Below, in pieces: positions 7,235 through 39,500 of a stretch of DNA of 64,000 nt (the stretch's first letter is position 1; each line of letters starts with the position of its first letter). The notes beneath the pieces were generated by a model. The model was not told the DNA's origin. It saw only the letters and a list, made by a program, of their open reading frames with translations, and made no database searches. This DNA comes from Eledone cirrhosa (Eukaryota). The position numbers and the translations under genes are program-made. The stretch lies in contig OZ024740.1 in NCBI GenBank assembly GCA_964016885.1, positions 204,352,001 through 204,416,000 on the forward strand, read 5' to 3'.

Positions 7235-7533
7235 GCGGGGACATAGAAATAATCGGGCTGGATGCCCGATCGCGCAGTTAAACCACTGGGAGTGAAGAAC
7301 CCCTAGCCCATGTCAGGGTATTCTTCTAGGAGAAGGCATCTCAGGAAACTGGGTTAACTCCGATATAAAACCTGCGGCTCAGTAGTTACCGATGATGTTG
7401 ATCTTTTCTTCTTTTCGGGTTATAGCTACTGTCGCTCAGAGAGTGGGATTGGTTCAGTGCACAGTCTTTCCTCACTTTAAAAATATTCGTCACGCACAGG
7501 CATTGCACGAGTGCATTAATAATTATTAATAGT

Positions 7534-7570
<37 letters not shown>

Positions 7571-7575
7571 TATTA

Positions 7576-7607
<32 letters not shown>

Positions 7608-10600
7608 CCCAATTCAATGATGTTCCAGAACAATGTAAACGAGATAATTGCCAATTTGGGTTCTGGAACAAAAGAGATCATTGGCAATAAGGGCAGGGGC
7701 CCCAAGTTATCACAACCTGGGCCCGCCCGTCATCGTGCCATTGTAATAGAGCCAAACAGGGCATTTAGTCTTGGCTGCTGGAACGTACGGACGCTGCTTG
7801 ACAGGGATTCTTTGGAGCGTCCTGAACGAAGGACCGCTCTTGTTGCGAAGGAGCTTCGACGTTACGATCTTGACATCGTGGCTTTGTCTGAGACGAGGTT
7901 AGCTGGAGATGGTCATCTTACGGAATTTTGTGGAGAATATACATTCTTCTGGAAAGGAAGAGATGAAGGAACCAGAAGAGAGGCTGGGGTAGGATTTGCT
8001 GTTAAGACTGTACTGGTGAATAAATTAGAAGAATTTCCAGTGGGGATTAGTGAGCGTCTTATGTCCATGAGAGTTCCGCTGGACAAGGGAAGATATGCTA
8101 CCCTGGTGAGTGTGTATGCTCCAACTATGAATTCTGTCGATGAAGAAAAACTGTCCTTTTACCATGCCTTGAAAGGTGTTTTAAGAAATATCCCTCAGGC
8201 AGACAAAGTCATCGTGCTTGGTGACTTTAATGCTAGAGTGGGTAGGGATTTTAACACATGGAATGTAATCGGAAGGCATGGGGTGGGAAAGTGTAACAGC
8301 AATGGTATGCTCTTGCTGCAGATGTGTGAGGAGCTGGATCTGTGTGTTACCAACACCATGTTCCAACAAAAGAACAAATTCAAGACCACATGGATGCATC
8401 CTGCATCTAAGGAATGGCATCTTTTGGACTACGTCCTAGTCAGGATGCGTGACAGACAGGATGTGCGGTGTGTTCGTGTTCTTCGTGGAGCTGAGTGCTG
8501 GACGGACCACCGCCTGGTACGCGCAAAAGTGAATCTAATCACCAAACGTAAAATCCGGGCTCCTGGTGTTACCCTGCCCAAAAGATTGAATGCTGCTCGT
8601 CTTAAGGATAAAAATGTGAAGAGGACATTGGAAGAAGAGATGCAGGCTGCAGATCTTGGTGAGGATTGGCCGACCCTTAAAAAGTCGGTTTATGATGTAG
8701 GCAGACGTGTTCTGGGATTGGTGCAGAGAAAACATCGGGACTGGTTTAATGAGAAAGATGTGCATATAGATGACTTGTTGGCTGATAAGAGGCGCGCTCT
8801 GTCACGCTACTTGACGGCAAGACCACAGGAGAGGAATACGTTGCATGAGGAGCTCAGGGATGTAAAATCACGTGTTAGGCGGAGTCTTTCTCAGATGAAG
8901 GATCGGTGGTGGAGTGAGAAGGCTGGTGAGATACAAACTGCGTCTGATTGCAATAACACAAAGCTGTTGTACAGTCTCTTGCGTGAGGTTTATGGACCGT
9001 CTTCTTCTCTGGTGACACCGATTCGCAGCAGGGATGGCAAAGAACTTCTTCGTGACTCACAGGGAATTCTACGAAGGTGGCGAGAGCACTTTGATGATCT
9101 TTTGAATCAGCCGTCTGTCGTCAGTGAAGATTTCCTCAATCTCATTCCGGAAAGTCCTGTGAAAGTAGCTCTCGCAGAGCCTCCGACACTTGTGGAGGTT
9201 GCAGTGGCTATTTCGAAGCTGAACAGTGGAAGATCTCCAGGTATGGATGGCATACATGCTGAGCTCCTACAATATGGTGGTGAGAGACTCCTGCAACATC
9301 TTCACTCTCTGTTTGGAAGGATATGGGCTAATGAATCCGTGCCTGAGGACTGGAGAGATGCAGTAATGGTGGTCTTGTACAAGGGAAAGGGTAACAGGAA
9401 TGATTGTGGGAACTACAGAGGTATATCATTGCTTTCTGTCGTGGGGAAAGTTTTATGTAGGGTGCTTCTGGACCGTCTGCTGACACACATTGCAGATTGT
9501 GTCCTTCCTGAAAGTCAATCTGGTTTTCGTGTTGGACGCGGCACTACTGATATGATCTTCTCAGCTAGACAGCTCCAGGAGAGGTGCATTGAACAGGGCT
9601 TGGATCTGTATCAGGTTTTTGTCGATCTGACAAAGGCTTTCGATACTGTCAACAGAGATGCATTATGGAAGGTTCTCCAGAAACTTGGTTGCCCTGATAA
9701 GTTCCTTGCTTTAGTTAGGTCTTTCCATGACGACATGAAGGCTTGGGTTAATGTCGGAGGTAACATGTCGGAGCCTATCTCAGTAAAAAATGGAGTGAAA
9801 CAGGGGGATATTCCAGCACCGACCCTGTTTGCCATATACTTTGCAATGGTTTTCTGTGTTGCATTCAGGAATTGCGAGCATGGTGTTTACATCCGATATC
9901 GAACCTCAGGCAGCATATTTAACATCAGGCGCTTTGCTGCGAAGACAAAGGTATTTACATCGGTCATAAGAGACCTCTTGTATGCAGATGATTGCGATCT
10001 TGTAGCGCACACAGAGAGTGATATGCAGCACATTTTGAATGTATTTTCTGACGCTTGCACTGCCCTGGGTTTGACTGTCAGTCTCAAGAAAACCGTCGTC
10101 ATGTACCAACCTGCACCTGGTAGGCAGTACACTGAACCAAACATCTATGTGTATGGCAAACGACTTGGAGTGGTTGATCAGTTTGTCTACCTGGGAAGCA
10201 CTGTCAATCGACACGGCAACCTTGACAGTGAAATCTCACTTAGGATTAGGAAAGCAAGTGATGCTTTCGGAAAGCTAGAAAGGCGACTCTGGGGTCGGCG
10301 AGACATATGCAGGAGGACAAAGGTAAAGGTGTACAGGGCATGTGTACTCTCTTGTCTTCTTTATGCCTGCGAGACCTGGGTCACATATCGACGCCACCTT
10401 AAGCAATTGGAGCGTTTCCATCAGATGTGTCTCAGACGGATACATGGCGTTCGCTGGAGGGACCACATCAGTGATGTCGAGATTTTGGAAAGCTCTATGT
10501 GTGACAGTATAGAAGCTCTTGTGCTTAAGCAGCGACTCCGTTGGAGTGGTCACCTTGCCAGGATGAAGGATTCTAGAATACCAAAACAACTCTTCTATGG

Positions 10601-11170
10601 AGAGTTGGTTAAAGGAAAACGACCGCCACATAAACCAAAAAAGAGGTATAAGGATTCCTTGAAGGCCTCTCTGAGAGACGCTAACATCTCTGCTGATACA
10701 TGGGAAAATGTTGCTGCTGATCGTAATAAATGGAGAAAGACTGTATATGAGGGAAAAGTTGCCTTTGAGGCATCTCGAATCGCACACGAGAAAGTAAAGC
10801 GGGACGTGAGGAAGGGTATTGCTGTTGCACTTCCAGACGGCGAGGGTCCTCCTATGTTTCTGACATGCAGCGTCTGTGCGAGACTCTGCCTAAGCAAAGC
10901 TGGACTCGAAAGTCATCTTCGCAGTCATAAAGTAAGACCAGTGGTTGACTACCAGGCTGCTGTTGGAGATGCTACTCATCATGCTTGCCAAACATGTGGT
11001 AGAGAATGTAAATCAGCAGGAGGACTCAAGCGACATGCAAAAGTACACGAACTCCAACCACAGCCGACTATTCCCAGTAAATGTTTTGGTTGCCGACTCT
11101 GTGCAAGACATTTTGGATCATTGGCTGGGCTAAAAAGCCACATTCGATCGCAGCACTGTTAGTTGCTATC

Positions 11171-15906: not shown

Positions 15907-16105
15907 TGGAGATTCTTTTCTTTGTTTTTGTGTCTCTCCTTTGTTCTGTCCTACGCCATCTTGTTTTTGTGTGTGTTGTGTGCTTAGTTTTCGCATGTGT
16001 TACATCCGTGTGTCTATGTGTGTTTATATTTGTTTATTTATTTGTTTATTTACATGTTACTGGTTGGTTGTTTGTTCTATGTGTGTGTGTGTTTTCATTT
16101 TGTCC

Positions 16106-16921
16106 TTAATTGTAAGTTGTGATGTTGCTATTCCATTCATGCTTTCTATTTAATTTTGGTTGGAGTTCATTTATGTTTATTGCCTCTGTGATTTGTCTAA
16201 ACATTGCGTCTTTTCTGTGTGTAGATTCTATTTTTATTTCTATGTTCTTTAATTTGCCCTTATGTTCTATTTTAGCATGTTGGTAGAGTACAGATGATTC
16301 TTTACTATCTTGAAGCTCTCGCCAGTGTTCATTTATCCGTTCTCCTATACTATGAGCTGTCTCACCTATGTACACTATATTCTTATCTCTACATTGTCCT
16401 TCAGTACATCTTATGCTATATACTACATTTCTAGTTTTACAGTTAATATGGGGGCTTAGTTTACAGATTATACATTTCTTATCTATACAGGGAGGTCTTT
16501 GAAAAGGGTATGTATTGCTAATAAGTGTTTTTATAGAGGTACCTGGTCTTTCTACTATCTTAATATTGAGTTTATGTTTATGTAGGGCCCTTCTGAATTT
16601 GTAAGCTAATTCACCTCTAGGGGTTGTATTGATGAACATTACACTCTGGTATTTATTGCTATCATACCATGAGTGTATTCTATTAACCTTATTCCTAGTT
16701 CTTTCTATTCTATTCCAAAATTTGCTCCTATACAAGGGGCAGGTCCCATTTGTATCATTATTTACCATGTTTTCCCATTTGGTTCTGGCTCCTCTATATA
16801 CTCTGATATTATCTCTCTGGTTGTAACCAGAGAACTGCATACGGTGGATGAAGTGTTGTATGTGTCTCTCTAGTTCTTTGGGGTTGCACATGCGGGACAC
16901 GTTTCTCATCACCAGTACCAA
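16106..16921 (-). pseudogene. Penelope linker and GIY-YIG endonuclease fragment (inverted arm, 271 aa open)
   Basis: PCIDKKCIIC, NVVYSIRC..VYIGET..ERINEH and EAININELQPKLN. Confidence 0.8.
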
Positions 16922-18181
16922 ATCCGCAATCAGTATGTTGATTTTGGTGTGGTTGATGATATAAACATCGTAGTAAAAACACCCTCACTAGAGAACAGTC
17001 AGGAATTAGAGAAAAACACCATGGAAAGCATCCAGCAAATAGCTAACTCCATCCACCAGAGTATTAGAGTTACTATAGACTACCCAAGCAAACACCCCAA
17101 CCATCGATTACCTGTACTAGACACAGAGCTCTGGTTAGATACTATCAATAACAAAAAACAGATCCTCCATTCCCATTATGCCAAACCCAAGACTTCCAAA
17201 CATCTGATCCACCGAAACTCAGCTGTTTCGGACCACACCAAAATCAACATACTGATTGCGGATTTGGTACGGGTGATGAGAAACGTGTCTCGCATGGCAA
17301 CCCCAAAGAACTAGAGAGACACATACAACACTTCATCCACCGTATGCAGTTTTCTGGTTACAACCAGAGAGATAAGATCACAGTATATAGAGGGGCCAGA
17401 ACCAAATGGGAAAACATGGTAAATAATGATACAAATGGGACCTGCCCCTTGTATAGGAGCAAATTTTGGAATAGAATAGAAAGAACTAGGAATAAGGTTA
17501 ATAGAATAAACTCATGGTATAATAGCAATAAATACCAGAGTGTAATGTTCATCAATACAACCCCTAGAAGTGAATTAGCTTACAAATTCAGAAGGGCCCT
17601 AGATAAACATAAACTCAATATTAAGATAGTAGAAAGACCAGGTAGCTCCATAAAAACACTTATTAGCAATACATACTCCTTTCAAAGACCTCCCTGTATA
17701 GATAAGAAATGTATAACCTGTAAACTAAGCCCCCATATTAACTGTAAAACTAGAAATGTAGTATATAGCATAAGATGTACTGAAGGACAATGTAGAGATA
17801 AGAATATAGTGTACATAGGTGAGACAGCTCGTAGTATAGGAGAACGGATAAATGAACACTGGCGAGAGCTTCAAGATAGTAAAGAATCATCTGTACTCGA
17901 CCAACATGCTAAAATAGAACATAAGGGTAAATTAAAGAACATAGAAATAAAAATAGAATCTACACACAGAAAAGACAAATGTTTAGACAAATCACAGAGG
18001 CAATAAACCTAAATGAACTCCAACCAAAATTAAATAGAAAACATGAATGGAATAGCAACATCACAACTTACAATTAAGGACAAAATGAAAACACACACAC
18101 ACATAGAACAAACAACCAACCAGTAACATGTAAATAAACAAATAAATAAACAAATATAAACACACACAGACACACGGATGT

Positions 18182-18232
<51 letters not shown>

Positions 18233-19523: not shown

Positions 19524-22500
19524 CCCCGTGACCAAGAAATACCGGGATGGCGGCCGGCGGGGAATAGCCGTGTCTCTAGGGGAGAACGACCCCTCTAGTC
19601 TTGGTTGACACTCGTTCTAGAAGTGGTAACACGAAATGATTACCCCTTGGCGGATAAGGATAAAACGCGACAAAATAAAGTAAATGTCTAATGATAAAAT
19701 CTCATACCGGATCGGCCGTCACCCGGGTAAAAAAGGGCCGCGTCCCTCAGAGAGGAACCAGACTGGGGTCGAAAAATCAGCTAATGGTTCAAACCTTCCC
19801 ATCACTTCGGAGCTGGAGACCTCCCATAACCGGAATACTCCTACTGTTGGCCCTCCATGCTCACCACCAAGAAATCCAAAGAAAAAGAGAGAAAAATGGT
19901 CAAGGGAAGATAATAAAGAAGTCCTTGAGGCTTTCTACACTGCCATGTACTACCCATCAAATACATCGAATACAGAACAGACATGTATCAACTGGAAAAA
20001 GAAACATCCCGAAAACAGAGGCTATATTGACAGTAACAAACTAGCCAATATACGAAGAAATATTGTAAGAAAAAAGTTACTAACTGATATAGAAATTGAT
20101 CAGATCAAGCTATTAGCACAAAGTCAGCGAAGGGAAAATGAAACATGTGTCAGTGAAAACGAGGTAAACTGTAACACTTCGAACCCCAGGGTTGGGGCGG
20201 AATCACTGGCAACAACAAATTAAAGAAAGGATCGAAAAAGTGGAGGGAGTGCATGCTCAGGATGAAACTCCAAATGAAAATAATGAGATCGTAAATGATA
20301 AAGAAATGAATGAGAATGAACTTGCCAACTTGAAGGATGAAATTATGATCGAATGGATGAAAATGAAAGAATCTGACATGGGGCAACGAGACACCCTCCC
20401 TAAGATCCAGAACTCCAAACAGAACCAAAAGATAATACACAAGACTAACATAATTCTCAAAAACATTATCATCACAAACAAACTAAACATTACTGATTTA
20501 AATCATCTCTATTATGCATCGGCTAAAGTCACCACTCACTTATGTGGAGTGAAGATGAAAAAACAAAGGAATTCCCACAAGAAATCTACTTGGCAAGAGA
20601 ACATCAATCGCCAAATAAACCTTCTCCGATCTGACATAGAAATTTTAACAAACTATAAAATAGGTGAACATGTTAAACAAACTAAACTTAGAAAATTGAA
20701 AAAAAAAGTACAGTATAAAATCAACATGTGACATAGACATGCTGATAGAAATAATCAAGCAAAAAGTGTCGGCCAAAGCTGCTCGTATAAGGCGCTTTGA
20801 AAAACGATCTAGATTCTATAAGGACAATAATATGTTCAAAAACAACCAAAGAAACTTCTACAGAAGAATTGGTAAGTCAACAATAACTGCTAAATCAATA
20901 CCACCCAAGGAGGAAGTGCAAGAATTCTGGGAAAAGATCTGGGCCGAAGAAAAGGTTCATAACATACATGCCCCATGGATAGACAGACAAATGAAAGATA
21001 CAGCTCACCTTGAGGAACAAATATGGGAAAATATAACAGTTGAACAGTTGCGCTTGGCTCTAAGAAAAACCAGCAAATGGAAATCCCCAGGAAAAGACAA
21101 AATACAAAACTTTTGGATAAATGCCTTCACAGAGTCTCATGAGCTGTTAGCCCAACTTTACAATGAAATAGTTAAGGAGCCAGAAAAGATACCATCATGG
21201 CTAGTTAACGGCATTACATTCCTGCTTCCGAAGAATGATGAGACAAACAATCCCCAAAATTACAGACCGATAACTTGCTTGACCACAATGTATAAAATTT
21301 TAACATCAGTCCTAACTGAATACACATATGACCACCTGATAACAAATGACCTATTTCCAGAAAGGGTGTAAACGAGGCTCATATGGCTGTAAGGATCAGC
21401 TTCTGGTTAACAAAATGATACTGGAAGATTGTCATAATAGACACAAAAATCTATCGATTGCTTGGATAGATTATAAAAAAGCATTCGATAGTTTGCCACA
21501 CAGTTGGATTGAAAAATGTTTAGAGATTTTCAAAATATCCCCCGTTGTCAGGAGGTCTTTGACATGGAAAACGACACTCCTTTTGAATAGTGAAACAAAA
21601 TCACTGGAAGCTGGAGAAGTTAATATGAATTGTGGAATTTTTCAGGGTGACTCTTTATCACCGCTTTTATTCTGCATCGCACTTATACCATTAAGTAAAA
21701 TGCTCAATGAAACAAAACATGGATATAAAGTCTATGACAAAACCATTAATCACCTGTTCTACATGGATGACCTGAAACTATTTGCAAAAAATGATGAACA
21801 ATTGCAAGGGCTATTATCCACTATGAAGCAGTTCAGTGATGACATTAAAATGGAGTTTGGACTAGATAAATGCGCCAAAGCAACGTTCACCAGAGGAAAG
21901 CTGCTGAAGAGTTCAGACATTAATCTTGATCGGGGGAACGTGATAAGAGAACTTGATCAAGAAAAAACTTACAAATATCTAGGTGTTTGTGAAGGAGACG
22001 GAATCAAGCACTCGACAATGAGGGAAAGGATAAGGAAGGAATGTTACCGCAGAGTAAGAGCAATCTTAAGAACGGAATTGAATGCAAGGAATAGGATCGA
22101 TGCCATAAACATGCTTGCCATACCAGTAGTAACCTACAGTTACAATGTCATCAACTGGTCAAGCACAGGGATATGTAGGCTCGATACAAAAATTCGAAAA
22201 TTCTTAACTATGCACAGAATGCATCACCCTAAGGCAGATATAGATAGAATATATCTCCCTAGGAAAGAAGGAGGACGTGGGTTAATCCAGTTAGACATTG
22301 CGTTGAAAACTGCAACAATTGGATTATCTACATATCTAAGGGAATCACATGATTGGATGATCAAACTCGTTTTGAAACACGAAAGCATCAAAAGATCATA
22401 TTCCATTACAAAAGATGCACAAAGATACAGTAATGGACTACAAATTTCAGAAGTCCCATTTACTGCTGAAATGGAAAACACAGAAAAAGCAAAGCAGGTA

Positions 22501-23453
22501 AAAGTAACCGCAAAGAAAGAACTGCTACAGAAACTGGCTAAGAAATGGCAAGAAAAGCCTCTGTATGGAAAATACCCAGAGCGAGCTAACAATCCTGATG
22601 TTGACAAAACTTTAACCCATCAGTGGTTGGCATCCTCTGGACTGAAATCGGAGACTGAAGGACTGATTATATCAGCACAAGATCAGTGTCTGCCAACAAA
22701 AAATTACCAAGCCAACATAATAAAAAATGGATGCAGCCCATTATACCGTGTATGCAAAAAACAACAAGAGACCATTGACCATATAATTTCAATGTGCAGT
22801 CCTATAGCTCCAACCGAATACCTAAACAGGCATGACAGAGCTGCACAATACATACATTGGATAATGTGTAAGCATTTTGACCTGCCCCATCAAAAGAATT
22901 GGTGGGAGCATCAACCACCTCCCATACTTGAAAAAGATCACATCTCAATTCTGTGGAACTTTAGCATCCAAACAGACCGAAAAATAGATGCAAATAGACC
23001 TGATATAATATTGAAGGACTTTCAAAAGAGGGTATGCCTGCTAATTGATATGTCTGTTCCAATAGACAAGAATGTATCTATAAAAACATTTGAAAAATTG
23101 AGCAAGTATAAGGACCTGGAGATAGAAATTGGAAAAATGTGGAAATTGAGAACTAAAACAATACCAGTGGTTGTAGGCGCTCTGAGAATGATACCTAAGG
23201 GGTCTAATGATTACTTATCGCAGATCCCAGGAAACCCGCGTATAGGAGAAATACAAAAGATAGTACTAATGGGAACTGCCCATATACTAAGGAAGATTCT
23301 GTCAATATAAGTACATCACAAGTCTAAACACTAAAGATGCATGTGTGAGTATGTATGTTCTTCCTTGAACATGGCGAACCTTGTTGTCTCTTGAGGTCAC
23401 TGGTTGTGACTTGGTGATAACTCGTATGAACATAAAGCAAGATAAATGCAACT

Positions 23454-35077: not shown

Positions 35078-35183
35078 TAGACCCAGACGTGGCTGTGTTA
35101 TTAAGGACTTTATTATAGACCCAGACGTAGCTGTGTTGTTAAGGAGTTCGTTATAGACCCAGACGTGGTGTGTTATTAAGAAG

Positions 35184-36564
35184 TGTAGCGGTTGTCTCCC
35201 TTGTTTTGATTGGGATCTAGACGGGAAGTAGAACCCTTTCTGCAACTTCCGGTCAGAGCCCTATAAAACTAACAACTTTAAGCTTTCTAACTCTCTTTGC
35301 CTTTTCGGCACCAGGTCAAGAGCCTCTCATTGGGCTCCGCCATTAATTTGGCCAACAGGCGCCTGGACTTAGCCAGGCGTCTTCTGCCAGCCGCGTTTGC
35401 CTGGCAATCAAAACGGTAACTACTAACTTTGCTTCATTCTAACAACAACCTCATCTTTGACATGTCAAGTATACTATCTACCATTGTTAATTAAATATTA
35501 TACACACAAACCATGTCTCGTTTTGTTACATTCATACAACCTCAGTAATCTCGCTATATCGGTGACCCCGACGTGATACGAACACGCGGCCGTTCATCAC
35601 GTCGGGGTCACCACTTTAGGAAATAGATATCGGTGCACATGCAACATAATATAAAAGACAAAGAGTACTGGTGTGTGTGTGTGATAAAGTTTTACTTCAT
35701 AGAAGTCAAAGGTGTATAATGTAAAGGGTTGTTACCCGATGGCAATAATACCATTCTGAAGTTGGTAGAAATGTCTTGGCGCTCTCATCTCAGGCTGGTG
35801 AGCTGCATGGTGCTTGGTAACGAAAGGGTCGTCCAGCAAGAATCACCAGCTATGGTCGGAGATGTTACCACTTCAGGAATCAGGAGGCGAGAGAGAGATT
35901 TCGCGGTTAATCGCTCCTTTTATCTCTGTTGACCGGAAGTGACCACTAGGGAGTTTGGTCAATCCCAAAGGGAAGCAACTCCACCTACTTCCTGTCTAGA
36001 GAACAGCGATTCGATTGTCGTGGATGTCCAGTCGTTCTCTGGCCAAGAGCGGTTGGCTACCTTGATATCTATCATTGATTTTTCCAAACATTCTTTTGTC
36101 TTAATTTTCATGCCTGTTACAACATTCTCGCCAACTTGCTACATATTTTCATTTCGATTTTTATACACTAAAATTCTGGCGGGAGGTTATGTAGCGGTTG
36201 TCTCCCTTGTTTTGATTGGGATCTAGACGGGAAGTAGAACCCTTTCTGCAACTTCCGGTCAGAGCCCTATAAAACTAACAACTTTAAGTTTTCTAACTCT
36301 CTTTGCCTTTTCGGCACCAGGTCAAGAGCCTCTCATTGGGCTCCGCCATTAATTTGGCCAACAGGCGCCTGGACTTAGCCAGGAGTCTTCTGCCAGCCGC
36401 GTTTGCCTGGCAATCAAAACGGTAACTACTAACTTTGCTTCATTCTAACAACATCCTCATCTTTGACATGTCAAGTATACTATCTACCATTGTTAATTAA
36501 ATATTATACACACAAACCATGTCTCGTTTTGTTACATTCATACAACCTCAGTAATCTCGCTATA
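35184..36564 (+). mobile_element. Non-autonomous LTR retroelement (TRIM-like, probably Gypsy-dependent), 1381 bp
   Basis: 375-bp LTRs at 35184-35558 and 36190-36564 (TGTAGCG...CGCTATA; 3 differences seen). TSD GAAG at 35180-35183 and 36565-36568. tRNA-Trp PBS at 35560-35577 and PPT-like GGCGGGAGG before the 3' LTR. Empty site at 60931-60980. Confidence 0.93.
35560..35613. other. Head-to-head pair of tRNA-Trp primer binding sites (18-bp inverted repeat)
   Basis: Plus strand cGGTGACCCCGACGTGAT (35560-35577). ATCACGTCGGGGTCACCA (35596-35613) is the 3' 18 nt of tRNA-Trp including CCA, i.e. a perfect PBS on the minus strand. Confidence 0.9.
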
Positions 36565-39500
36565 GAAGTTTATTATACACCCAGACGTGACTGTGTTGTT
36601 AAGGAGTTCGTTATAGACCCAGACGGGGCTGTGTTATTAAGGAGTTTATTATCGAACCAGACGCGGCTGTGTTGTTAAGGAGTTCGTTATAGATCAGACG
36701 GGGCTGTGTTATTAAGGAGTTTATTATAGACCCAGACGTGGCTGTGTTGTTAAGGTGTTCATTATAGACCCAGACGTGGCTGTGTTATTAAGGAGTTTGT
36801 TATAGACCCAGACGTGGGTGTGTTATAGACCCAGACGTGGCTGTGTTATAGACCCAGACGTGGCTATGTTATTAAGAAGTTTCTTATAGACCCAGACGTG
36901 GCTGTGTTGTTAAGGAGTTTGTTATAGACTCAGACTTGGCTGTGTTATTAAGGAGTTTGTTATAGCCCCAGATCGGCTGTGTTGTTAAGGAGTTCGTTAT
37001 AGACACAGACGGGGCCGTGTTATTAAGGAGTTTATTATAGAGCCAGACGTGGCTGTGTTATTAAGGGGTTTCTTATAGACCCAGACGTGGCTGTGTTATT
37101 AAGGAGTTTATTATAGACCCAGACGTGGCGGTGTTGTAAAGGAGATCGTTATAGGCCCAGACGTGGCTGTGTTATTGAGGAGTTTATTATAGACCCAGAC
37201 GTTGCTGTGTTATTAAAGAGTTTGTTATAGACCCAGACGTGGCTGTGTTGTTAAGGAGTTTGTTATAGACCATGACGTGGCTGTGTTGTTAAGGAGTTCG
37301 TTATAGACCCAGACATGGTTGTGTTATTAAGGAGTTTGTAGTAGACCCAGACATGGTGGTGTTGTTAAGGAGTTTATTATAGACCCAGACTATGGCTGTG
37401 TTATTAAGGAGTTTATTATAGACCCAGACGTGTCTGTGTTGTTAAGGTGTTCATTATAGACCCAGACGTGGCTGTGTTATTAAGGAGTTCGTTATAGACA
37501 CAGACGGGGCTGTGTTGTTAAGGAGTTCATTATAGACCCAGACGTGGCTGTGTTGTTAAGGAGTTTGTTATAGACCCAGACGTGGCTGTGTTATAGACCC
37601 AGACGTGGCTATGTTATTAAGAAGTTTCTTATAGACCCAGACGTGGCTGTGTTGTTAAGGAGTTTGTTATAGACTCAGATGTGGCTGTGTTATTAAGGAG
37701 TTTGTTATAGCCCCAGATCGGATGCGTTGTTAAGGAGTTCGTTATAGACACAGACGTGGCTGTGTTATTAAGGAGTTTATTATAGACCCAGACGTGGCTG
37801 TGTTATTAAGGGTTTCTTATAGACCCAGACGTGGCTCTGTTGTTAAGGAGTTCGTTATAGACACAGACGGGGCTGCGTTGTTAAGGAGTTTCTTATAGAC
37901 CCAGACGTGGCTGTGTTGTTAAGGAGTTTGTTATAGACCCAGACGTGACTGTGTTATTAAGGAGTTTATTATAGACCCAGTCGTGGCTGTGTTGTTAAAG
38001 AGTTCGTTAAAGACACAGACGGGGCAGTGTTATTAAGGAGTTTATTATAGACCCACACGTGGCTGTGTTGTTAAGGAGTTCGTTATAGACACAGATGGGG
38101 CTGTGTTATTAAGGAGTTTATTATAGACCCAGACGTGGCTGTGTTATTAAGGGTTTCTTATAGATCCAGGCGTGGCTGTGTTATTAAGGAGTTTATTATA
38201 GACCCAGACGTGGCTGTGTTATTAAGGAGTTTGTTATAGACCCAGAGGTGGATATGTTATTAAGGAGTTTCTTATTGACCCAGACGTGGCTGTGTTGGTA
38301 AGGAGTTTGTTATAGACACAGACGTGATTGTGTTGTTAAGGAGTTCGTTATCGACCCAGGCTTGGCTGTGTTATTAAGGAGTTTCTTATAGACCCAGACG
38401 TGGCTATGTTATTAAGGAGATTCTTATAGACCCAGACGTGGCTGTGTTGTTAAGGAGTTTGTTATAGTCCCAGACGTGGCTGTGTTGTTAAGGAGTTCGT
38501 TATAGACGCAGACGGGGCTGTGATGTTAAGGAGTTTCCTATAGACCCAGACGTGGCTGTGTTGTTAAGGAGTTCGTTATAGACACAGACGGGGCTGTGTT
38601 GTTAAGGATTTTCTTATAGACCCAGACGGGGCTGTGTTGGTAAGGAGTTTGTTATAGACACAGACGTGATTGTGTTGTTAAGGAGTTCGTTATAGACCCA
38701 GACGTGGCCGTGTTATTCAGGGGTTTCTTATAGACCCAGACGTGGCTGTGTTATTAAGGAGTTTATTATAGACCCAGACGTGGCGGTGTTGTAAAGGAGT
38801 TCGTTATAGACTCAGACGTGGCTGTGTTATTAAGGAGTTTATTATAGACCCAGACGTTGCTGTGTTATTAAGGAGTTTGTTATAGACCCAGACGTGGCTG
38901 TGTTGTTAAGGAGTTTGTTATAGACCATGACGTGGCTGTGTTGTTAAGGAGTTCGTTATAGACACAGACGGGGCTGTGTTATTAAGGAGTTTCCTATAGA
39001 CCCAGACGTGGCTGTGTTGTTAAGGAGTTCGTTATAGACTCAGACGGGGCTGTGTTGTTAAGGAGTTTCTTATAGACCCAGACGGGGCTGTGTTGTTAAG
39101 GAGTTCGTTATAGACACAGACGTGGCTGTGTTGTTAAGGAGTTTCTTATAGACCCAGACGTGGGTGTGTTGTTAAGGAGTTCGTTATAGACACAGACGGA
39201 GCTGTGAAGTTAAGGAGTTTGTTATAGACCCAGACGTGGCTATGTTATTAAGAAGTTTCTTATAGACCCAGACGTGGCTGTGTTGTTAAGGAGTTTGTTA
39301 TAGACTCAGACGTGGCTGTGTTATTTAGGAGTTTGTTATAGCCCAAGATCGGCTGTGTTGTTAAGGAGTTCGTTATAGAGACAGACGGTGCTGTGTTATT
39401 AAGGAATTTATTATAGACCCAGACGTGGCTGTGTTATTAAGGGGTTTCTTATAGACCCAGACGTGGCTGTGTTATTAAGGAGTTTATTATAGACCCAGAC

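Follow-up and report, generated by a model that had tools for sequence, protein, structure and literature searches.

The 64-kb window of Eledone cirrhosa DNA analysed here holds an LTR element whose tRNA-Trp PBS is extended past tRNA position 58, with a mismatch exactly at that position, and is followed by a second PBS in the opposite orientation. Does this arrangement record an accident of reverse transcription at the locus itself, and could the hairpin it encodes serve a function? With a probability of roughly two in three, we favor a composite answer, namely that the element is a single-copy chimera of a family that we call A with the inverted LTR and 18-nt PBS of another family, B, likely made by two RT template switches, and that its extension was inherited, likely from one old read-through event in which a wrong base was placed opposite m1A58. 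The hairpin is a recurrent by-product of reverse transcription that is single-copy in its window form, and the genome-wide record of primer read-through, with its errors at position 58 and its long fixed extensions, is of greater value.

The element is 1381 bp long (35184-36564), is inserted in a 38-bp satellite with a GAAG TSD, and is non-coding, with a PBS and a PPT between LTRs that differ at 3 of 375 sites. Its parts are as follows.

35180..35183, plus strand: left copy of the 4-bp TSD (GAAG), inside the 38-bp satellite array
35184..35558, plus strand: 5' LTR of the non-autonomous family A, 375 bp, with TG...TA ends
35560..35577, plus strand: tRNA-Trp PBS, tRNA positions 76-59, its first base changed from T to C in this copy only
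35578, plus strand: A opposite tRNA A58, where T is expected; fixed in family A
35579..35591, plus strand: extension complementary to tRNA-Trp 57-45, an inherited family-A trait with a private change at 35588
35592..35598, plus strand: family-A leader as far as a 3-nt microhomology (35596-35598), the putative site of a template switch
35596..35613, minus strand: the partner element's perfect 18-nt PBS, ending at tRNA position 59, the canonical plus-strand stop
35615..36023, minus strand: inverted LTR of the autonomous family B, truncated by 23 nt at its start and with 97% identity to the LTR of B copy L155
36021..36023, plus strand: 3-nt microhomology TGG at the B-to-A junction, which is unique genome-wide
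36024..36189, plus strand: final 166 nt of the internal region of family A, including the polypurine tract at about 36178-36189
36190..36564, plus strand: 3' LTR of family A, 372/375 identical to the 5' LTR
36565..36568, plus strand: right copy of the TSD

All the letters and positions that the original prediction gave for the PBS, the extension and the inverted PBS were confirmed. The inverted PBS at 35596-35613 is the terminus of the 409-nt inverted LTR of another family and not a free-standing unit. An Rfam search returned nothing near threshold, and ARAGORN identified no tRNA gene in the 64-kb window. The satellite array hosting the insertion has a strong G skew and spans about 40 kb (window 24200-64000).

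Host tRNA-Trp(CCA) genes were recovered from the 3.0-Gb genome; all nine distinct sequences tallied have A58, and they differ from one another mainly at positions 57 and 47. The stretch 35560-35591 matches host tRNA-Trp from position 76 to position 45, so that complementarity, claimed to reach at least 28 nt, extends over 32 nt, and the A for T at 35578 does fall opposite A58, with the extension matched as predicted. The window copy has two further private differences, C at 35560 and G at 35588; position 35560 is T in all other aligned contigs, none of which has the full element span, and 35564 also differs there. For the 13 letters of the extension, 12 of which match in the window copy, the chance of a match is of the order of 0.25^13 = 1.5e-8, and backwards-pattern controls for the extension and junction patterns gave 0 matches genome-wide. 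That A58 is m1A in this host is presumed from the conservation of the modification (PMC13191261, consulted, like the other papers cited here, in part). Clusters of tRNA-Trp genes lie at G000:C4:353.39-353.49 Mb (36 listed matches) and at 277.40-277.44 Mb. A- and B-like pieces are also present, in small shares, in sequencing runs of two other organisms.

The window copy inherited its PBS extension from family A. In the genome, an exact 18-nt pattern that includes the position-58 mismatch has at least 561 matches (control 0), a lower bound because the pattern misses extension copies from the A57 tRNA isoform. The first 75 places listed comprise 74 leaders of family A and one independent event, L125; 71 were tabulated together, the other four being the window, L092, L125 and L127. 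Position 58 is A in 69 of these 71 leaders and G in 2, the search pattern having excluded T. Main-lineage family-A copies with T at 58 were absent from all the places viewed, namely 50 out of 83 from one genome search, 4 PBS-variant matches and the first 100 of 160 read-through places described below. Since the extension is fixed in a family of more than 500 copies, the window locus does not itself record the read-through accident, and the original prediction of a fossil of misincorporation at position 58 fails as an event at this locus; it holds across independent read-through copies elsewhere in the genome.

Family A is multi-copy and larger than the window element. In 20 copies viewed at 10 kb, no pol frame lies between the LTRs where both were found, the length is about 1.9-2.1 kb, and the internal region is 85-90% identical to the 3' internal part of family B. 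Like TRIMs, the window element is non-coding and has the order LTR-PBS-internal-PPT-LTR (PMC6934838), but its 1381 bp and 375-bp LTRs exceed the TRIM sizes of <1000 bp and 100-250 bp, as does the still larger family A, and its architecture is single-copy where TRIMs share one structure.

Family-A leaders have an arm 3' of the extension that, in the older copies L281, L294, L308 and L339, is a direct duplicate of the LTR end plus 11 PBS letters, 21 nt exact. Fresh duplications of the LTR end and PBS head of the same kind are found at L252, L293 and L348, and L327 is an independent founder with such a duplication, a T at 58 and a shorter extension. Because the LTR end and PBS head are repeated in the arm, the leader is best read as the outcome of read-through followed by re-landing on the LTR end: in an ancestor of family A, plus-strand synthesis may have passed A58 as far as about position 45, with A placed opposite 58, and re-landing would then have duplicated the LTR end and the first 11 PBS nucleotides. 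After position 45 the family-A leader continues with GTTC. A 1-nt insertion is needed to align this with the tRNA, and the ancestral copy could therefore have ended at either 45 or 42.

Two other derivations of this region were rejected. The family-A arm is not a decayed inverted PBS, given the direct duplicates just described, and GTTC plus the inverted arm is not a tRNA copy that skipped 57-58, GTTC being present in family-A leaders that lack the arm. The PBS of the family also departs from its primer, 56 of 71 copies keeping two non-tRNA letters and the tRNA-perfect copies being scattered; a host tRNA-Trp variant was rejected as the source of this common PBS, with 4 matches, one of them a tRNA gene with one of the two changes. 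Among the family-A leaders on C1 (L061-L090, L218-L257), 9-10 of 71 PBSs have the tRNA core, well below the half expected under 50:50 primer-copy inheritance, a deficit for which selection or Ty1-like inheritance could be responsible. For mouse ETn/MusD/IAP elements, section 4.3 of PMC7472051 likewise discusses mismatched PBS majorities and PBS inheritance, and that section describes no extension or decoy arm.

How, then, did an inverted PBS come to follow the extension? The left junction, from extension to inverted PBS, has 12 matches at 9 loci genome-wide. The inverted partner LTR is of family B at the window, L258, L259 and L265, of family A at L260, L261 and L262, and of a third family, C, at L263 and L264; a tenth locus, L267, is a variant in which the switch took place at a second homology block, 8 nt into the PBS. 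The 9 loci have 9 different architectures, and the 4-bp TSDs differ at all 7 loci read (the window, L258-L262 and L267). The junction is recurrent, and the window form is single-copy, its right junction (B-to-A, 36021-36023) being unique in the genome. At every junction locus the inverted arm is 18 nt long. Moreover, at the two sites where 56 of 71 genomic A PBSs depart from the primer, the arms match the tRNA in 3 of 3 A-partner loci (expectation 10/71, p ~0.003, at sites outside the search pattern), so these arms were copied from a primer. As the genomic PBS of family B is mostly perfect, a tRNA and a genomic origin look alike for the window arm. The original prediction had seen here a captured copy of a mature tRNA; the tRNA-templated arm ending exactly at position 59 survives from that proposal, while the free mature tRNA gives way to the LTR plus PBS of a partner element.

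Family B is autonomous and 5.7 kb long, encoding a Gag with a Cx2Hx9Cx3C motif, RT, RNase H and integrase (Pfam order in copy L155: RVT_1, RT_RNaseH, Integrase_H2C2, rve), and six of six long loci have the plain arrangement LTR-PBS-internal with an 18-nt PBS and no extension. By its tRNA-Trp PBS, 4-bp TSD, Cx2Hx9Cx3C Gag and PR-RT-RH-IN order, B can be likened to the CsRn1 clade of Ty3/Gypsy elements such as PwRn1 and AgCR (PMC2582038). The Gag motif is present in L155 and is shared by copies of another family, F, whereas family A and the window element are non-coding and encode no Gag. The parts of PMC2582038 used here describe a short PBS and mention no extension, and extensions in other CsRn1-like elements may be on record. 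A cross-species search returned 17 Gag homologues.

The best reading of these junctions is that plus-strand strong-stop DNA mis-transfers onto the arm of the family-A leader, which resembles a PBS. The Trp PBS has a nearly palindromic head, and this is computed to make the duplicate the best acceptor for an 18-nt PBS end on the whole A plus strand: when an 18-nt PBS was scanned along one A copy, with RNA parameters as a proxy for the DNA-RNA hybrid, the arm came out on top at -16.3 kcal/mol, the next site reaching -13.6. A DNA end stopped at m1A58, comprising an LTR and 18 nt and coming from B, A or the third family, would pair with the arm on A RNA in place of the minus-strand PBS, and its elongation across the extension and PBS would then give the order PBS-loop-inverted PBS. 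In the window copy, the growing A minus strand probably switched to a B template within the 3-nt microhomology, after which the B LTR and 18 nt of B's primer would have been copied before a hop back at the arm. The product integrated normally, as its intact LTRs and TSD show, and it has left no second copy. A and B were presumably co-packaged, the two switches presumably took place in this order, and the product presumably lost its mobility. L259 is the mirror product, a B frame with its interior replaced by inverted extension-PBS-LTR A-PPT-3'UTR, as would be expected if A RNA had been primed at the arm and a normal first-strand jump had followed.

A chromosomal origin has to be weighed against this sequence of events. 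B could have inserted antisense into A, with a later round of reverse transcription deleting the middle by switching between the B PBS and the look-alike arm, and no strong-stop end would be needed. The abundance of A and B is in keeping with such nesting, as are the position of the junction, which lies within microhomology and also falls where a plain homology-driven switch would, and the use of the second homology block at L267. We nevertheless consider it unlikely. Where B joins A there is no integrase end, the first 23 nt of the B LTR being absent and the join lying in a microhomology. The A-partner arms have tRNA letters, and L259 and L265 have PPT and 3'UTR upstream of LTR and then PBS, an order that nesting does not simply give. 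By the same token, an integrase-made junction at 36023 was rejected, given the 23 nt missing from the B end and the microhomology.

Two further observations concern these chimeras. L258 (G000:C1:204421000-204430900) is a second independent A-B double-PBS chimera, 41 kb from that of the window and apparently in the same 38-bp satellite, and its B LTR is 99.5% identical to the window's and is cut 3 nt further out. Four independent chimeras (the window at 36024, L267, L259 and L265) have their joins to the A internal region clustered in about 40 nt (1232-1268 of copy L107), immediately following a purine-rich stretch that is possibly a pause site or a second PPT.

The strong-stop reading places the read-through itself in the past of family A, and the rest of the genome offers many more cases. 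The genome has 410 perfect Trp PBSs, and in 160 of them the complementarity goes on into the T loop. The first 100 of these 160 places, a set chosen blind to the base at 58, were classified and gave 101 rows, comprising 55 of family A, 22 of family D, 2 each of families F and E, 1 of family G and 19 singletons. At position 58, the 55 family-A rows have 53 A, 1 G and 1 T. The singletons, which are followed by unrelated downstream sequence, are mismatched in 5 cases, and most read-through copies carry the correct T (14 of 19 singletons; 22 of 22 family-D copies).

A separate search for copies reaching tRNA positions 42-43 found 26, of which 5 belong to family F and 21 are singletons on many LTR types; it allowed at most one mismatch, and its pattern did not provide for the A57 tRNA isoform, copies of which were either lost or counted as one mismatch worse. 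In the 21 singletons, position 58 is mismatched in 4 of 21 cases, compared with 6 of 436 at the other sites of the extension (Fisher p = 5.8e-4, or p = 0.003 in the worst case that the one-mismatch limit allows), no other site being mismatched more than once. These singletons and the 19 of the T-loop set have 9 loci in common and are therefore not independent. All three wrong bases occur at 58 among read-through copies. A fossil of read-through is thus well supported as a class, and moderately so for the ancestral A at 58 of family A. End points in the 21 singletons fall at 38-40 in 11, at 35-36 in 4 and at 28-29 in 3, which is suggestive, at the level of sequence, of blocks near tRNA positions 37 and 26; tRNA G37 is commonly m1G. 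L125, listed also as L188 (G000:C1:273133322-273133356), is a read-through copy to tRNA 28-29 with wrong bases at 58 and 37, followed by inverted LTR sequence.

This pattern resembles the in vitro signature of m1A, in which RT either arrests or reads through with misincorporation (PMC4787781), with the difference that the signature comes from enzymes acting on purified RNA, whereas here the writer would be the endogenous RT and the record is chromosomal DNA. In retroviral DNA, isolated examples of a tRNA copy at an LTR end have been reported (PMC12220202, citing Colicelli and Goff 1986), where, as here, a CCA-bearing tRNA was copied by RT and attached to an LTR end. Those cases, as far as that source presents them, are single cloned or cell-line examples with a non-cognate tRNA-Gly; in this genome the primer is the cognate one, the germ-line insertions number in the dozens, and several of them gave rise to families.

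Fixed extensions are found in at least five families, ending at tRNA position 45 in A and D, 44 in G, 51 in E and 37-38 in F. Family D, about 5.4 kb long with pol fragments, is of autonomous type, as is family F, with its Gag motif, RT and integrase; family E is about 2 kb and non-coding. The closest known counterpart is the primer over-extension sequence of lentiviruses and spumaviruses, in which complementarity likewise continues directly 3' of the 18-nt PBS beyond A58 and is conserved in the family (PMC13191261, PMC8599865), so that over-extended plus strands can still pair. The lentiviral sequence reaches about position 55 (3-4 nt), compared with 8-22 nt in the fixed families and up to 31 nt in the singletons here, in a Gypsy-type element and with wrong bases at 58. 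Besides products of the normal 18-nt stop at m1A58, minor ones that end at 55, 54 and 37 have been described (PMC13191261). Plus strands copied beyond 54 are stated to be unable to integrate (PMC8599865, in the part consulted); in this genome such copies are integrated. Ty3 priming is discussed in PMC5371799. A literature keyword search, by which old and subscription papers are poorly covered, returned no genome-wide account of long read-through copies or of a double PBS in LTR retrotransposons.

This counterpart suggests another origin for the mismatch. The extension could have arisen or been kept for longer pairing with the primer or for the rescue of over-extended plus strands, as a long form of the primer over-extension sequence, and since m1A cannot pair, the base opposite 58 would have been free to drift. 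Such a role would be compatible with our preferred reading, with which it competes only on the origin of the 58 mismatch. It agrees with the presence of fixed extensions in at least five families, D and F among them with gag-pol frames, with the predicted change in net tRNA binding of a typical family-A leader from -20 kcal/mol with 18 nt to about -46 kcal/mol with 32 nt, with the complementarity that HIV keeps to about position 55 (PMC8599865, PMC13191261), and with the variation at 58 in F (3 T, 2 A) and G (C, A). Against it, the excess at 58 is already visible in singletons, on which selection at the family level has had no time to act, autonomous B does well with no extension, and A and D are not re-templated from the tRNA. 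Family D is constant at 58 (T in 22/22), and 10 of its 22 copies retain a letter at 52 that is foreign to the tRNA, so there is no sign of routine use in plus-strand transfer; over-extended transfer fits the variation in F and G and does not fit A and D. The original prediction had made the fossil reading depend on whether autonomous elements routinely carry the same extension; D and F have fixed extensions of their own, which bears on that condition, and B has none. We regard drift as improbable for the mismatches in general, and, as the A at 58 in family A traces to one ancestral event, it could account for that base alone.

Read-through followed by template switching leaves the hairpin of the window copy as a by-product. 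The 54-mer of PBS, extension and inverted PBS folds at -43.4 kcal/mol (z = -5.0, 0 of 200 shuffles as good). The structure is predicted to occlude the PBS, as originally proposed, and only in part: the predicted net tRNA binding falls from about -46 kcal/mol in the typical family-A leader to about -28 kcal/mol if the extension pairs, and from -20 to -2 with 18 nt only, compared with -34 kcal/mol for family B. The original prediction also proposed that the hairpin could act as a cis self-primer, cleavage after the 3' arm releasing a tRNA-like 3' end that is paired to the PBS from the outset. In Tf1 it is the 5' end of the element's own transcript that pairs, with a non-tRNA PBS. The geometry and strong fold would suit such a role and the junction is present at 9 loci, but we consider it highly improbable, since each locus has its own architecture with no amplified form (the window right junction being unique), none of the 12 matches is the flipped-loop daughter of another locus that copying would produce, no cleavage signal is evident, and Tf1-type elements self-prime with no tRNA-complementary PBS (PMC6934838), whereas the window PBS is complementary to tRNA-Trp.

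The debate over how strictly m1A58 halts synthesis in vivo, and over the fate of over-extended plus strands, has drawn mostly on HIV, studied in vitro and in cell lines. Integrated over-extended copies are numerous here, show an m1A error pattern and in some cases founded families, so the rate of bypass, its error spectrum and the downstream stops can be counted from genome sequence alone. It is tempting to go further, and we hold the chances to be even, in proposing that LTR elements here routinely pass m1A58, that the products integrate and some found families with 14-22 nt over-extensions, that the genome is therefore a countable in vivo record of tRNA modification, and that one such fossil became a decoy acceptor trapping the strong-stop DNA of co-packaged elements. 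The record in question would consist of the wrong bases at 58, one at 37 and the ends clustered at 38-40, and, if the proposal is right, the same census could be applied to any animal genome. The double PBS matters less, as a recurrent dead-end product, but it marks strong-stop mis-transfer between different elements in one particle.

A few further features were noted in passing. L352, L363 and L137, of other families, have a PBS, a short spacer and a second LTR end with PBS head, an architecture like that of the family-A arm. Elsewhere in the window, a long 98% inverted repeat lies at 15995-18188 (arms of 680 and 211 nt, with 409 nt between the inner arms), and there are unannotated open frames of 655 codons (21343-23310) and 1209 codons (7533-11162), the longer of which may be a tandem repeat. 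Finally, at G000:C2:87933130-87933210, two perfect Trp PBSs lie 45 nt apart in diverging orientation.
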